Shown here: positions 23,378-48,375 of the stretch, one piece after another
Numbering within the stretch: the first letter of the stretch is position 1
How the letters are laid out: every line of letters begins with the position of its first letter
Source of the DNA: Escherichia coli
Lineage (GTDB): Bacteria > Pseudomonadota > Gammaproteobacteria > Enterobacterales > Enterobacteriaceae
Direction: 5' to 3' (one strand)
Length of the DNA stretch: 64,000 nucleotides
NCBI RefSeq assembly: GCF_003018255.1
Contig: NZ_CP027440.1
The notes under the pieces: model-generated
Seen by the model: the letters and a program-made list of their open reading frames with translations, nothing else
The model's database searches: none
Told to the model about the DNA's origin: nothing
Made by a program: the position numbers and the translations under genes

Positions 23378-23468
23378 GACAACTCCGGCAGGATACTAAA
23401 GGCCGCAAGTGTAACGCGAATCACGCGGCGGGCAAATATCCGAACGACTGGAGCGAAGATAAAGCAAA

Positions 23469-23497
23469 GTAAAAAGCCTCGCATTCGACGAGGCTTT
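23469..23497 (-). terminator. cspC intrinsic terminator
   Basis: Minus-strand RNA forms gcctcg / cgaggc stem followed by uuuuu. Confidence 0.7.
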
Positions 23498-23542
23498 ATA
23501 GCGAGATTGAAGCGTATTCACACTTCAGATCAGTGGATTCGA

Positions 23543-23752
23543 TCAGATAGCTGTTACGTTAACAGCTGCCGGACCTTTCTGACCGTCCTGAATTTCGAAC
23601 TCAACGTTCTGACCTTCAGCCAGAGTTTTGAAACCATTACCCTGGATAGCAGAGAAGTGTACGAACACGTCTTTGCTGCCATCAGCCGGAGTAATGAAGC
23701 CAAAACCTTTAGACTCGTTGAACCACTTAACCTGACCTTTAATCTTTGCCAT
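23543..23752 (-). CDS. cspC: Cold-shock-domain protein CspC, 69 aa
   Basis: ORF 23543..23752 minus; [20 protein letters not shown] with RNP motifs. Confidence 0.96.
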
Positions 23753-23764
23753 TTGAAAAATTCC

Positions 23765-23908
23765 TTAGATTGTTTTCTTCGCCCGCAGGCATAACATAGA
23801 TAAAACTGACACATTACTGCATGAGGCACCAATATAAGGCTCGGCAGAGAAGCGGTATTCAACGTCAACGTGTTTACTCAGGACTTCTTTACTGAAAATG
23901 CCACACAT
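23765..23908 (-). CDS. yobF: Small stress-induced protein YobF, 47 aa (co-transcribed with cspC)
   Basis: Manual minus-strand translation [47 protein letters not shown]; ends 12 nt before cspC start; below ORF-track cut-off. Confidence 0.85.
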
Positions 23909-24532
23909 AAACAGAACTGTACCTCGTTTAACCCGAAATCTGTTATCACATACAACGTTAATTATGGCAAGCCATTTTTAAACATGTCTCGATCAGACGC
24001 ACAAATCTCGATACGTCTTCCACTTTTTTTGCACACTTATGCAACGGAATACGCGCCGATATATCATTGTGCTTAACCTTGCCAGTTCAGGCAGATACTT
24101 AAACTGACGTATTTTCTAACATAGTTCAATAAGTTCAGTTGTTCCAGGCCAGTGGGAGAAGTTATTACATAGTGCGTGCAATATCACATTTTCTGCTATG
24201 CAATGAATAAAAAGTTATATCACTTTTTCTCATAAAACAGTCAGTTAACGGCTATCGATCACCCCAAAGAGAAGTCAATCGCCAAAGGTATTGTAAATTT
24301 AAAATAAGAAAAATTGATGAATGCGCAAAAAAATCAAGAGAGAAACGTTTCGCTAATAAATAATACCACGCTTAATCACAAATCCGATGTAAACATCCTA
24401 ATAAATTAATGGGCTAAATATCTTTTTCTGATATCCCGTTACGCAAATAAATAATATGATAATTATTTGAAGTCAGACCAGAGTTTTAATTTGAAGCAGT
24501 TGCACCATGACAGTGCGTATAATCAGGATGAA

Positions 24533-24564
24533 TTGAGTAACCCTTCAACGACGGGGTTACTCAA
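24533..24564 (-). terminator. Perfect 11-bp stem hairpin 14 nt downstream of yebO stop (probable yebO terminator; U-tract weak)
   Basis: ttgagtaaccc-(10 nt loop)-gggttactcaa. Confidence 0.4.
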
Positions 24565-24577
24565 GATTGAGGAAGGA

Positions 24578-24865
24578 TTATCGTTCGGCGACCAGACGAA
24601 TAATATCTTCGTCTTCAACCGATTTTTGACTCTCAACGGTCTTTTTATCTGCTTTCTCAGGTTCGTTTGCTTCGCACAAACGACGTAACAGAGCATTTTG
24701 ACGTTTTTGCTGATCCAGCAACGCCTCAAGCAGTTCAATCTGTTCGTTAGTCCGTGAACTGGCACGATTGATAAAAAACCACAAGATAAGCCCGATAAAA
24801 AGAACCACCACCGATACAACCAAAGACGCAATGTTCATCACGCCTGAATTTACAACTTCGTTCAT
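24578..24865 (-). CDS. yebO: Small membrane protein YebO, 95 aa
   Basis: ORF 24578..24865 minus; N-terminal TM helix then charged tail. Confidence 0.9.
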   Translation of the reverse strand: MNEVVNSGVMNIASLVVSVVVLFIGLILWFFINRASSRTNEQIELLEALLDQQKRQNALLRRLCEANEPEKADKKTVESQKSVEDEDIIRLVAER

Positions 24866-28011: not shown

Positions 28012-28893
28012 TTACTTCAGGTATTCACCCGTACGCAGAGCTTCAATACGTTTATCCAGCGGCGGGTGAGTCATGAACAACTCACTGAGCGATTTCGACT
28101 TACCGTTAATGCAGAAAGCCATCATGCTGGTTGCTTCTTGCGGTTCATAGCTGGTTTTCAGGCGCTGCAATGCAGCAATCATTTTCTCGCGACCAACCAG
28201 TTTTGCCGAACCGGCATCAGCGTGGAATTCACGATGACGCGAGAACCACATGGTGATAATGCTCGCCAGAATACCAAACACCAGTTCCAGAACCGTTGCA
28301 ACCGCAAAGTAGATCAGCGGGTTGCCGTTGCTCTCTTCACCTTCATCACGATTTCCGCCCATAAAACCCGCGGCAAGCTGCGCCAGAATTCGGGAAATAA
28401 AGATAACGAAGGTGTTCACCACGCCCTGAATCAGCGTCATGGTGACCATATCACCATTGGCGATGTGGCTGATTTCGTGAGCAATTACCGCCTCGGCTTC
28501 ATCCGGGCTCATGTTCTGCAGCAAACCGGTGCTGACAGCAACCAGAGAGGCATCACGGCGCGCACCGGTTGCAAAAGCGTTGATGTCCGGCGCATGGTAG
28601 ATAGCCACTTGCGGCATAGCGATCCCCGCCTGACGAGCCTGGGTTGCTACAGTATTGACCAGCCAACGTTCCCTTTCGTTACGCGGTTGCTCGATCACTT
28701 CCCCGCCAACAGATCGTAATGCCATCCATTTGGACATCAGAAGCGAAACGAAGGAACCACCAAAACCGAACAGCAAGGCCATGATCATCAGCCCCTGAAC
28801 GCTGCTCGACTGTATCCCTGTCAGGCTCAGTACCAGCCCGAAAACGACCATTACGGCCAGGTTCGTTAGCAGGAAGAGCGCGATTCGCATCAT
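28012..28893 (-). CDS. htpX: Membrane zinc metalloprotease HtpX, 293 aa
   Basis: ORF 28012..28893 minus; HEISH zinc motif present. Confidence 0.95.
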
Positions 28894-46023: not shown

Positions 46024-46287
46024 ATTTGCTCCTCAATAACCATTTTTAGTGCCTGTAGCATAGCGGATGAGGATGTCAGAAAATGTATATTGAGACAAAA
46101 GATGCGCAAATAAGCGGGGCGGTAGGCCGTTATTCAAAGAAATTCGCGCCAGGTAAGGTGTTCACTGTATATAAGGTGATAAGGGTATTTTAGGTGAAAG
46201 TAGTTTGACGTTTTGAGTGGAACTGTTTGATGCTGATTGCCCGGTTCGACGCTGCTGCGTCTTCTCAGGACTACGATTGTGTTGCGT

Positions 46288-46325
46288 TGTAGGGCGGACA
46301 AGGCACTCGCGCCGTATCCGCCAAC
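46288..46325. repeat. REP element in yebF-yebE spacer
   Basis: Minus strand reads cggatacggcgcgagtgccttgtccgccctac, matching the REP palindromic unit. Confidence 0.6.
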
Positions 46326-46349
46326 GGTCAATCGAATTATCAGAAGCCA

Positions 46350-46754
<405 letters not shown>

Positions 46755-46772
46755 TCAGGAGCGCAAGTTGCT

Positions 46773-47063
46773 TCAGGCCGCGTGTGAGGCATCTTCCTCT
46801 TCGGATTCAGCACCGACGACCTGTGGGGACGGTAATTTGCCGGTTTTCAGAATGGTGCTCAGCACATCTTTTTGTTCTGCCAGCCATAGCGAAAGGGCTT
46901 CACGTTGCTCGTCTTCCATTTGCACTGGAGAATTTGTCAGCCAGGTGTCAAGCAGATCCGCCGTATCAAGCATTTTGTCATAAGCATCGGCTTCCTTTTT
47001 GCTGGTAAACGACATTTTCTCTTCGCCCTCACGAATGACTACGTATTTAACTTCAACCGCCAT
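46773..47063 (-). CDS. yebG: SOS-inducible DNA-damage protein YebG, 96 aa
   Basis: ORF 46773..47063 minus; LexA box immediately upstream. Confidence 0.93.
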   Translation of the reverse strand: MAVEVKYVVIREGEEKMSFTSKKEADAYDKMLDTADLLDTWLTNSPVQMEDEQREALSLWLAEQKDVLSTILKTGKLPSPQVVGAESEEEDASHAA

Positions 47064-47080
47064 TTGCAGCCTCTCATAAT

Positions 47081-47100
47081 AACTGTGATTTTATACAGTA
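47081..47100. promoter_or_regulatory. LexA (SOS) box in yebG promoter
   Basis: aaCTGTgattttatACAGta, the CTGT-N8-ACAG palindrome, 18 bp upstream of yebG start. Confidence 0.8.
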
Positions 47101-47196
47101 TATTTCTTCTCGATTGGGAAATCAACATCAACAATAAAGACACGCGCAAACGTTTTCGTTTATACTGCGCGCGGAATAAATCAGGGGATATTCGTT

Positions 47197-48375
47197 ATGA
47201 CGTTATTAGGCACTGCGCTGCGTCCGGCAGCAACTCGCGTGATGTTATTAGGCTCCGGTGAACTGGGTAAAGAAGTGGCAATCGAGTGTCAGCGTCTCGG
47301 CGTAGAGGTGATTGCCGTCGATCGCTATGCCGACGCACCAGCCATGCATGTCGCGCATCGCTCCCATGTCATTAATATGCTTGATGGTGATGCATTACGC
47401 CGTGTGGTTGAACTGGAAAAACCACATTATATCGTGCCGGAGATCGAAGCTATTGCCACCGATATGCTGATCCAACTTGAAGAGGAAGGACTGAATGTTG
47501 TCCCCTGCGCTCGCGCAACGAAATTAACGATGAATCGCGAGGGTATCCGTCGCCTGGCAGCAGAAGAGCTGCAGCTGCCCACTTCCACTTATCGTTTTGC
47601 CGATAACGAAAACCTTTTCCGCGAGGCGGTTGCTGAAATCGGCTATCCCTGCATTGTTAAACCGGTGATGAGTTCCTCCGGCAAGGGGCAGACGTTTATT
47701 CGTTCTGCAGAGCAACTTGCTCATGCATGGGAGTACGCTCAGCAAGGCGGTCGCGCCGGAGCGGGCCGCGTAATTGTTGAAGGCGTCGTTAAGTTTGACT
47801 TCGAAATTACCCTGCTAACCGTCAGCGCGGTGGATGGCGTCCATTTCTGTGCACCGGTAGGTCATCGCCAGGAAGATGGCGACTATCGTGAATCCTGGCA
47901 ACCACAGCAAATGAGCCAGCTGGCTTTGGAACGTGCGCAAGAGATTGCCCGTAAAGTGGTGCTGGCACTGGGCGGTTATGGGCTGTTTGGTGTCGAGCTG
48001 TTTGTCTGTGGTGATGAGGTGATTTTCAGTGAGGTCTCCCCTCGCCCACATGATACCGGGATGGTGACGTTAATTTCTCAGGATCTCTCGGAGTTTGCCC
48101 TGCATGTGCGAGCCTTTCTCGGACTTCCGGTTGGCGGGATCCGTCAGTATGGTCCTGCAGCTTCTGCCGTTATCCTGCCACAACTGACCAGTCAGAATGT
48201 CACGTTTGATAATGTGCAGAATGCCGTAGGCGCAGGCATACAGATTCGTTTATTTGGTAAGCCGGAAATTGATGGCAGCCGTCGTCTGGGTGTTGCGCTG
48301 GCGACCGCTGAGAGTGTTGATGAAGCGATTGAGCGCGCAAAGCACGCCGCCGGACAGGTAAAAGTACAGGGTTAA
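47197..48375 (+). CDS. purT: Formate-dependent GAR transformylase PurT, 392 aa
   Basis: ORF 47197..48375; ATP-grasp translation. Confidence 0.95.

Follow-up and report, generated by a model that had tools for sequence, protein, structure and literature searches.

The hairpin that follows yebO in Escherichia coli is best explained, with a probability of about 0.6, as the stem-loop that defines the 3' end of the mgrB-yebO transcript and blocks exonucleases there, the transcript itself being terminated largely by Rho, possibly with weak intrinsic termination in addition. The hairpin belongs to a known class, and a public Term-seq table already contains the adjoining 3' end, where it went undiscussed. 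The gap between yebO and yobF is made up of this 3' stem-loop of the mgrB-yebO mRNA and, beyond it, of the multi-promoter control region of yobF-cspC, both of them ordinary kinds of feature.

Locus and genomic context

In the window, i.e. the whole 64-kb stretch of DNA that was analysed, the genes rlmA, cspC, yobF, yebO and mgrB all lie on the minus strand; the features discussed here are compiled in Table 1. The 1.2-kb segment 23700-24900 is 100% identical to E. coli strain CFSAN061763, and K-12 MG1655 is collinear across the gap without insertions or deletions, such that position x of the window corresponds to K-12 position x + 1,883,683. The gene mgrB is activated by PhoP and annotated as encoding the PhoQ kinase inhibitor, and CspC is a transcription antiterminator. 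Together, mgrB and yebO form one bicistronic transcript (PMC5861431).

The preliminary description had singled out the region between yebO and yobF as the largest non-coding gap, which is correct for the annotated intergenic gaps of the window, the next ones measuring 428, 421 and 395 bp against 669 bp. K-12 RefSeq annotates nothing inside it. The small gene yobI was considered as a possible occupant and rejected, K-12 having no annotation there and the RpoD gSELEX table pairing yobI with ruvA. A search of the gap for conserved small ORFs gave no convincing candidate: the plus-strand ORF 24039-24107 (22 aa) alone is preserved intact in four close relatives within Escherichia, and the conservation of its region stops at the genus limit. 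The intergenic RIBO-seq supplements for O157 hold no entries for the gap.

Table 1. Features of the yebO/yobF gap and its neighbours in window coordinates
Feature	Position	Strand	Remarks
cspC	23543-23752	minus	
yobF	23765-23908	minus	
yebO/yobF gap	23909-24577		669 bp; 35.7% GC vs 50.4% in the window
Near-invariant proximal promoter and leader	23909-24008	minus	promoter scan, alignment
Palindrome-like site TTGCATAAGTGTGCAA	24029-24044	.	between two promoters; conservation 0.82-0.96
Distal promoter-like site TGGAAC-17-TATGTT	24118-24146	minus	conservation island; predicted TSS near 24111
TGCATA-N2-TATGCA-type palindrome	24189-24205		related to TTGCATAAGTGTGCAA; present in most genera
Palindrome AGCGAAACGTTTCTCT, LacI/GalR-type operator-like	24339-24354	.	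closest match: rbsD (RbsR) operator
C-rich, G-poor stretch, candidate rut-like Rho-loading region	24451-24532	minus	C:G counts, homologous loci, bicyclomycin
Palindrome TGCACCATGACAGTGCG (YGCAC-N7-GGTGCR), NtrC-box-like, possible small RNA hairpin	24501-24517	.	17 bp
Steady-state RNA 3' end, 'primary' yebO	24529-24530	minus	Term-seq, Adams et al. 2021
Stem-loop, mgrB-yebO mRNA 3' end	24533-24564	minus	11-bp perfect stem, 10-nt loop; repeat search, fold, covariation
Spacer between yebO stop and hairpin	24565-24577	minus	13 nt, UCCUUCCUCAAUC; read from sequence
yebO	24578-24865	minus	

The hairpin downstream of yebO

The inverted repeat TTGAGTAACCC/GGGTTACTCAA consists of two arms, 24533-24543 and 24554-24564, which are 100% complementary and enclose 10 nt. 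The perfect 11-bp repeat with its 10-nt loop had been placed at 24533-24564 in the preliminary description, and the repeat search agrees; the location relative to yebO likewise stands, the distance of 14 nt from the stop given there being off by one at most (13 nt follow the TAA). Nine distinct perfect 11-bp inverted repeats were observed in the 64-kb window, compared with 0.28 expected per 64 kb in locally shuffled sequence for loops of 3-20 nt. Fold prediction, which had been proposed as a check, yields a stable stem on the minus strand (-15.5 kcal/mol, z = -3.7), and the plus strand reaches -18.7 kcal/mol (z = -3.5). The hairpin is real and non-random.

On the yebO strand the stem is preceded by CCUCAAUC, which contains no A-tract, and followed by the tail UUCAUCCU, in which U makes up 4 of the first 8 nt and never occurs more than twice in a row. 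A U-tract is absent on both strands, in accordance with the earlier remark that neither of them carries a strong one. Four of the eleven stem pairs are G-C, the base of the stem being rich in A and U and its top rich in G and C. The proximal UU and the 4 U within 8 nt could support some intrinsic termination.

Compared with the canonical intrinsic terminator, with its GC-rich stem, a loop of 3-8 nt, and a U-rich tract of 7-8 nt, the hairpin falls short, and a terminator scan left it uncalled while calling the cspC terminator about 1 kb away. The latter (23473-23497; AAAGCCUCGUCGAAUGCGAGGCUUU followed by UUACUUUG) has in common with the yebO hairpin that it comes after the last ORF of an operon and sets the 3' end of the mRNA. 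The yebO hairpin differs from it by the missing U-tract and A-tract, the 10-nt loop, the AU-rich base below a GC-rich top, and the RNA end at +3/+4. A second point of reference is provided by the REP/BIME elements. Like them, the hairpin is an extragenic palindrome at the 3' end of an mRNA that could block exonucleases; unlike them, with their many copies and shared consensus, it is single-copy and has neither the REP consensus nor an Rfam match. Across 5423 E. coli genomes, the 86-nt segment containing the hairpin occupies a median of 1 and a maximum of 2 places per genome, and an identity as a REP element or as part of another repeat family was rejected because the segment is single-copy per genome. 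Searched at a permissive threshold, Rfam 15 returned no match to the hairpin at gathering score, the only overlapping one being psRNA2, which scores 15.6 bits where 65 are required (E = 0.63).

Conservation of the stem within Escherichia

About two thirds of the 5423 E. coli genomes differ from the window by 1-2 bases in the 86-nt segment; in six sampled variants the SNPs are located at 24573, 24527, and 24510, none of them in the stem. Further afield in the genus, a U-A pair has become C-G in E. albertii, where the stem is also extended, an A-U pair has become G-U in E. marmotae, and E. fergusonii carries a different, GC-rich stem, GUCGCUC/GAGCGAC, in register with that of E. coli. In the covariation analysis of the Escherichia sequences, where E. 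fergusonii and E. albertii account for most of the few independent lineages, 93.9% of the cells are paired and 5 of the 11 pairs have changed on both sides. None of 500 shuffles reached the observed value, and paired cells dropped to 25-42% when the partner was slid by 1-3 columns. A lack of conservation in close relatives had been named in advance as an observation that would count against the repeat; instead, the stem is kept, with compensatory changes. As far as these few independent lineages allow, the comparison suggests that selection acts on the structure of the hairpin.

Comparison across the Enterobacteriaceae

Among 80 yebO loci from Enterobacteriaceae, the distance between yebO and yobF is bimodal, with values of either 588-744 bp or 1509-1581 bp. 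The long form accommodates a gene for an MBL-fold hydrolase of 331-341 aa (Pfam Lactamase_B_2, E = 8e-42), which starts about 17 nt after yebO, and the yebO/hydrolase junction is spanned by a hairpin whose 5' arm contains the GGAGG ribosome-binding site of the hydrolase gene. Directly after the hydrolase stop, no hairpin was found in the long-gap genomes. A search by tblastn (E up to 10) detected no remnant of the hydrolase in E. coli, and faint traces of its C-terminal part were confined to the E. cloacae/hormaechei group. The short forms of this group retain the GGGGAGGUGG arm, and arm and remnant taken together show that a deletion has turned the junction hairpin into a terminal one.

Each of the 46 short-gap loci (46/46), which represent many genera, has a strong hairpin behind yebO; the median distance from the stop is 9 nt, the median energy -21.7 kcal/mol, and the median number of U among the 8 nt that follow 2.5. 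This number is significantly lower than at the cspC terminators of these loci (p = 1.4e-5), and the sequence of the hairpin varies between genera. Downstream of the hairpin C exceeds G in 41 of the 46 loci, a property that discriminates weakly, as the flank of the intrinsic cspC terminator also has more C than G in 38 of 46. That a U-poor hairpin of varied sequence is present wherever the operon closes with yebO points to a structural role at the mRNA 3' end and speaks against a sequence-specific protein site. This comparison of sequences supports the view that a 3' stem-loop would be needed for productive expression.

The mapped RNA 3' end and a probable role of Rho

In the Term-seq data of Adams et al. 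2021 (PMC7815308, supplementary file 1), the 'primary' 3' end of yebO is listed for the minus strand at K-12 positions 1908212 and 1908213; these positions recur in two sheets of the table, one per growth condition (PMC7815308). They were transferred to the window through the gap-free K-12 alignment, the flanking sequence being printed in the table, and correspond to 24529/24530. The RNA terminus reads ...GGGUUACUCAA-UUC(A), 3-4 nt past the last base of the stem. The absence of a transcript end at the repeat had been the other observation named as counting against it, and such an end is present in the published data. A 3' end at +3/+4 is equally compatible with a trimmed, intrinsically terminated RNA or with an endonucleolytic cut.

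The same authors reported a region of Rho termination with its peak at K-12 1908371, inside yebO (Rho score 3.55, p = 2.6e-26; PMC7815308, supplementary file 2), the score having been obtained with 800-nt windows that span the whole gap, the downstream one also taking in the yobF leader. According to read counts calculated from the table row for a yobF-internal 3' end (PMC7815308), bicyclomycin raises the reads from 234 to 987 in the 800-nt window over the gap, which includes the yobF leader and H-NS-bound AT-rich DNA, and only from 480 to 799 on the yobF-cspC side. With a peak inside yebO and windows of 800 nt, Rho dependence is located more coarsely than the position of the hairpin; moreover, when Rho is inhibited, spurious transcription is de-repressed in DNA that is AT-rich and bound by H-NS. 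A yebO-lacZ fusion that stops at the stop codon (primer JW10394) did not rise in the rhoR66S background (PMC7815308), consistent with a Rho event beyond the ORF. In the 60 nt from the 3' arm of the hairpin onward (24540-24481), the ratio of C to G is 15:7, and in 24510-24451 it is 11:7, such that the stretch 24451-24532 may be regarded as a putative rut site.

In this context the work of Dar & Sorek 2018 is of importance. Rho-dependent transcripts of E. coli were found to end sharply right after stable stem-loops without U-rich sequence, with a mild bias of C over G downstream of the stem-loops, the diffuse products of termination being cut back to the stem by PNPase and RNase II; mixed or transitional terminators among such sites were discussed as well (Dar & Sorek 2018). 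Of the features that characterize this class, the position of the 3' end, the absence of a U-tract, and the downstream excess of C over G are found in the yebO hairpin. It shares with the class the 3' end directly downstream of a stable stem-loop, lacks U-tract and A-tract, and lies in the yebO/yobF region for which bicyclomycin sensitivity was reported. It differs in that its Rho dependence and its trimming by PNPase/RNase II are presumed, and in the proximal UU, which may allow intrinsic termination.

The sequence of events can be rationalized as follows. RNA polymerase would pass the yebO stop and the hairpin and enter untranslated, C-rich and G-poor RNA downstream, where Rho, presumably loading on the C-rich stretch, would bring about diffuse termination in the AT-rich spacer. 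The uneven tails would then be trimmed to the stable stem by the 3'-to-5' exonucleases PNPase and RNase II, leaving a sharp steady-state 3' end 3-4 nt past the hairpin and an mRNA that would be shielded from further decay. Weak intrinsic termination at the yebO hairpin may make a minor contribution. A terminator of this kind would insulate the control region of yobF-cspC from PhoP-driven transcription of mgrB-yebO.

Promoters and leader of yobF-cspC

The remaining ~520 bp of the gap constitute the regulatory region of yobF-cspC, where two promoters are accompanied by a long leader and a number of conserved operator-like sites. That the gap holds the yobF-cspC promoters and a long leader had been anticipated in the preliminary description and is borne out by published work: two sigma-70 promoters upstream of yobF (yobFp1 and yobFp2), besides the intragenic cspCp8 (PMC13162491), an H-NS mark as well as several peaks of RpoD holoenzyme in the '670 bp spacer' (PMC3946193), and, in Salmonella, a TSS separated by at least 172-181 nt from downstream Tn5 insertions that themselves fall within the 5'-UTR (PMC10965054). 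RpoN-holoenzyme and, weakly, NtrC bind to the yobF spacer in vitro, and rpoN-dependent repression was reported under nitrogen limitation (PMC8743547). In addition, an intergenic probe gave a sigmaS-favoured forward-strand signal in vitro (PMC3141248). A sigma-54 promoter in the conserved islands was rejected on inspection by eye, the spacing being at variance with TGGCAC-N5-TTGCA.

In an alignment of 77 Enterobacteriaceae loci, comprising the 560 nt upstream of yobF, the block next to the gene (23909-24008) reaches a mean reference-base conservation of 0.78-1.00 per 10-nt block. The promoter scan proposes GAGACA-18-CATAAT at 23990-23961 as the proximal candidate; an alternative, TTGCCA-17-GATAAC at 23970-23942, has been listed for yobF (PMC3946193). 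The distal promoter-like site, which reads TGGACG-17-TATGGT in other genera, is a candidate for yobFp2, and the ~200-nt leader starting from it is compatible with the TSS and the Tn5 geometry in Salmonella (PMC10965054). The TSS positions given here for the E. coli gap are predictions, namely about 24111 (K-12 1907794) and, nearer to yobF, about 23928-23954. Further downstream, the Rfam cspA model RF01766 matches the minus strand at 23468-23928 of the window with 139.7 bits (gathering score 78), the yobF ORF being situated inside the part that is aligned to the cspA 5' UTR. A role of the hairpin as a leader element of cspC, which had been considered at the outset, is unsupported, because all promoter candidates are located downstream of the hairpin, the most distal conserved promoter-like site at ~390 nt from it, and because the hairpin is part of the upstream mRNA.

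Conserved operator-like palindromes

The palindrome AGCGAAACGTTTCTCT agrees in 15 of 16 positions with AGCGAAACGTTTCGCT, which in K-12 lies shortly before the start codon of rbsD and which we take to be the RbsR operator. The window contains only one GAAACGTTTC, with 0.13 expected, and 14 of the 16 positions of AGCGAAACGTTTCTCT are conserved at 0.92 or above in the 77 Enterobacteriaceae loci. In common with the operator at rbsD it has, in addition to this 15/16 match, the central CG typical of the LacI/GalR family; it differs in its distance of ~195 nt from the nearest conserved promoter-like site, which is located downstream of it, and its right half is degenerate in most other genera (GTTTTTAT). 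Judged by the sequence match, 24339-24354 is a candidate RbsR-type operator. A direct link between RbsR and yobF was not found in the literature searched.

A second palindrome, TGCACCATGACAGTGCG, lies close to the hairpin. The motif YGCAC-N7-GGTGCR occurs 47-72 nt past the yebO stop in 12 of the 46 short-gap loci, distributed over several genera, as compared with 0.16 expected. The site has the architecture of the NtrC consensus, TGCACCAnnnTGGTGCA, given in the study in which NtrC bound a yobF spacer probe in vitro (PMC8743547), and an assignment of 24501-24517 to NtrC appears plausible.

Alternative interpretations

A weak, non-canonical intrinsic terminator, in which the hairpin and an imperfect U-tract (UUCAUCCU) free some of the polymerases and the +3/+4 end is a trimmed product, is a conceivable but rather unlikely explanation. 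In its favour are a stable stem-loop directly after the last gene of the operon and a sharp 3' end adjoining it; in E. albertii the longer stem is followed by a more U-rich tail (CUAUCUUUAUUU), and mixed or transitional terminators are allowed for by Dar & Sorek. It is difficult to reconcile, however, with U runs of at most 2, the lack of an upstream A-tract, the 10-nt loop, and the AU-rich base of the stem, nor does a consensus scan detect the yebO hairpin, although it calls the cspC terminator. The analogous hairpins of the 46 loci are consistently U-poor (median 2.5 U per 8 nt), and a bicyclomycin-sensitive region has been reported at the yebO/yobF gap. Weak intrinsic termination is compatible with the model of Rho termination and a stem-loop, the two not being mutually exclusive. 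Of the earlier proposal of a weak yebO terminator, the connection with a transcript end has been retained, while the evidence favours Rho termination together with a protective hairpin over a purely intrinsic mechanism.

It is improbable that the hairpin is primarily a processing or regulatory element, i.e. that its 3' end is made by an endonuclease such as RNase E acting on a longer transcript in the AU-rich flank, or that binding of ProQ or of the antiterminators CspC/CspE tunes readthrough from mgrB-yebO into yobF-cspC. Adams et al. assign to processing most of the 3' ends that are neither intrinsic nor linked to Rho (PMC7815308), the genes are co-oriented, so that readthrough would reach yobF-cspC, and CspC promotes PhoP activation in Salmonella (PMC8599858), with mgrB coding for the PhoQ kinase inhibitor. 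Against this, neither a yebO-yobF co-transcript nor a hairpin-bound protein was found in the literature searched, and RNase III requires a stem longer than 11 bp. Between the hairpin and the most distal of the conserved promoter-like sites there are ~390 nt of AT-rich spacer, the known promoters of yobF are located downstream of the hairpin, and yobF-cspC is transcribed from promoters of its own. Still further down the scale of probability is a palindrome acting at the level of DNA, either for a dimeric transcription factor or as a cruciform site, without relation to RNA. The repeat is perfect, and the spacer harbours other conserved palindromes resembling protein sites; 11-bp arms separated by 10 bp are, however, atypical of an operator, and unrelated hairpins occupy the same position in other genera. 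In E. fergusonii and E. albertii the sequences of the arms shift and nevertheless remain complementary, and this variation with pairing kept is the signature of an RNA structure rather than of a sequence-specific protein site, which makes the protein-binding site envisaged earlier unlikely as well.

Biological implications

In a broader and speculative reading, to which we assign low odds, the spacer would be a conserved multi-input control region for the global RNA chaperone CspC, and the hairpin with its Rho terminator would serve as a regulated insulator, conditional readthrough coupling PhoP-driven mgrB-yebO to yobF-cspC. The candidate parts of such a region would be the RbsR-type operator, the NtrC-type box right after the hairpin, and the two further palindromes, and a repressor bound at the RbsR-like site might act as a roadblock that aids the insulator formed by hairpin and Rho. 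As the activation of PhoP is promoted by CspC in Salmonella (PMC8599858), coupling by readthrough would result in a closed loop. Along these lines, rbsR and cspC were independent matches in the same Salmonella screen for succinate utilisation (PMC10965054).

Within the framework of Rho termination and a protective stem-loop, the yebO hairpin is a routine case of how an E. coli mRNA without a U-tract terminator still gains a sharp and protected 3' end, and the mgrB-yebO operon thereby receives an explicit 3' boundary that is absent from the genome annotation. The gene mgrB is of medical relevance, its loss leading to colistin resistance in Klebsiella. A natural experiment is provided by the lineages in which yebO comes last, each of them having an unrelated hairpin at this position; in the Enterobacter cloacae complex, a hairpin sequestering a ribosome-binding site was reused as a terminal hairpin upon loss of the downstream hydrolase gene. 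The operator-like sites upstream of yobF-cspC are conserved and unstudied and furnish testable hypotheses for a locus that is a mutational hotspot in ageing colonies and, in Salmonella, a determinant of succinate use and PhoP activation.

Gap length and the hydrolase gene

Across genera the yebO-yobF gap is bimodal (~0.6-0.75 kb or ~1.5 kb), because a gene for an MBL-fold hydrolase of 331-341 aa (Pfam Lactamase_B_2) is present immediately 3' of yebO in many genera and missing in others. It is carried by Lelliottia, Kosakonia, Leclercia, Phytobacter, Cedecea, Buttiauxella and some Enterobacter, and does not follow yebO in Escherichia, Salmonella, Citrobacter and Klebsiella; accordingly, it is missing from the E. 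coli gap (window 23909-24577).

Features of the yebO-yobF region in the window and in yebO loci fetched from Enterobacteriaceae (L-numbers)
Feature	Location	Strand	Remark
MBL-fold hydrolase gene	L011:3308-4303; L029:3310-4335; 29 other loci
Junction hairpin, long form	L011:3300-3350
Junction-derived hairpin, short form	L048, L056, L072, L074		~15-55 nt past the yebO stop
17-bp palindrome TGCACCATGACAGTGCG (YGCAC-N7-GGTGCR)	window 24501-24517		~20 nt past the hairpin
Palindrome AGCGAAACGTTTCTCT	window 24339-24354		15/16 identity to the operator preceding rbsD in K-12
Pair of similar conserved palindromic sites	window 24029-24044 and 24189-24205		either side of the distal promoter-like site
22-codon ORF	window 24039-24107	plus	antisense to the yobF leader

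Palindromes and the yobF-cspC leader

The palindrome nearest the hairpin shares the architecture of the NtrC consensus. It recurs at the equivalent position in 12 of the 46 short-gap loci, from several genera, where 0.16 would be expected. Its central spacer contains a SNP that is common in E. coli (24510). The palindrome resembling the site upstream of rbsD in K-12, which we take to be the RbsR operator, is conserved at >= 0.92 in 14 of its 16 positions among 77 Enterobacteriaceae loci. No link between RbsR and yobF-cspC was found in the literature searched, although a single succinate screen in Salmonella picked up both rbsR and cspC (PMC10965054). The two sites flanking the distal promoter-like site, a candidate yobFp2, read TGCATA-N2-TATGCA in most genera, the E. 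coli version at 24029-24044 being TTGCATAAGTGTGCAA.

The Rfam cspA thermoregulator model covers the whole yobF-cspC mRNA (window 23468-23928, minus strand; 139.7 bits), with the yobF ORF of 47 codons lying within the portion homologous to the cspA 5' UTR. Term-seq placed a strong 3' end within yobF, 44 nt ahead of cspC (K-12 1907479, window 23796; PMC7815308). On the opposite strand, four further Escherichia species keep the 22-codon ORF intact, and a sigmaS run-off array gave a forward-strand signal at this intergenic probe as well as "antisense of cspC" (PMC3141248); the intactness of the ORF and the forward-strand signal could well be due to chance.

Elsewhere in the window, the annotation of an identical record has htpX and yebQ separated by an IS200C transposase (~28074-28532), and yebE and ptrB by an ISEc46 element (~46024-47675), which comprises an IS200/IS605 family tnpA and a TnpB-like gene.

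The hairpin at the end of yebO

The yebO stop is separated from the hairpin by a spacer (window 24565-24577, minus strand) with the pyrimidine-rich sequence UCCUUCCUCAAUC, which looks like an anti-Shine-Dalgarno sequence. This spacer contains one E. coli SNP, U to A at 24573. YebO variants of 112-113 aa occur in some E. coli genomes (P0025, P0026, P0022, P0035, P0071), with alignments covering only 79-91% of the 95-aa YebO; this suggests frameshifts or altered ends, which might extend into the hairpin region.

In E. fergusonii (L083:2789-3613), where the gap of 825 bp is ~155 bp longer than that of E. coli, the hairpin after yebO keeps its register but is built on a different, GC-rich stem. 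In long-gap genomes a hairpin spans the yebO-hydrolase junction and holds the GGAGG ribosome-binding site of the hydrolase gene within its 5' arm. In E. cloacae/hormaechei a faint C-terminal hydrolase remnant persists (tblastn E = 0.25-1.6); most of the hydrolase gene is deleted there and the junction hairpin is retained, now acting as the terminal hairpin after yebO.
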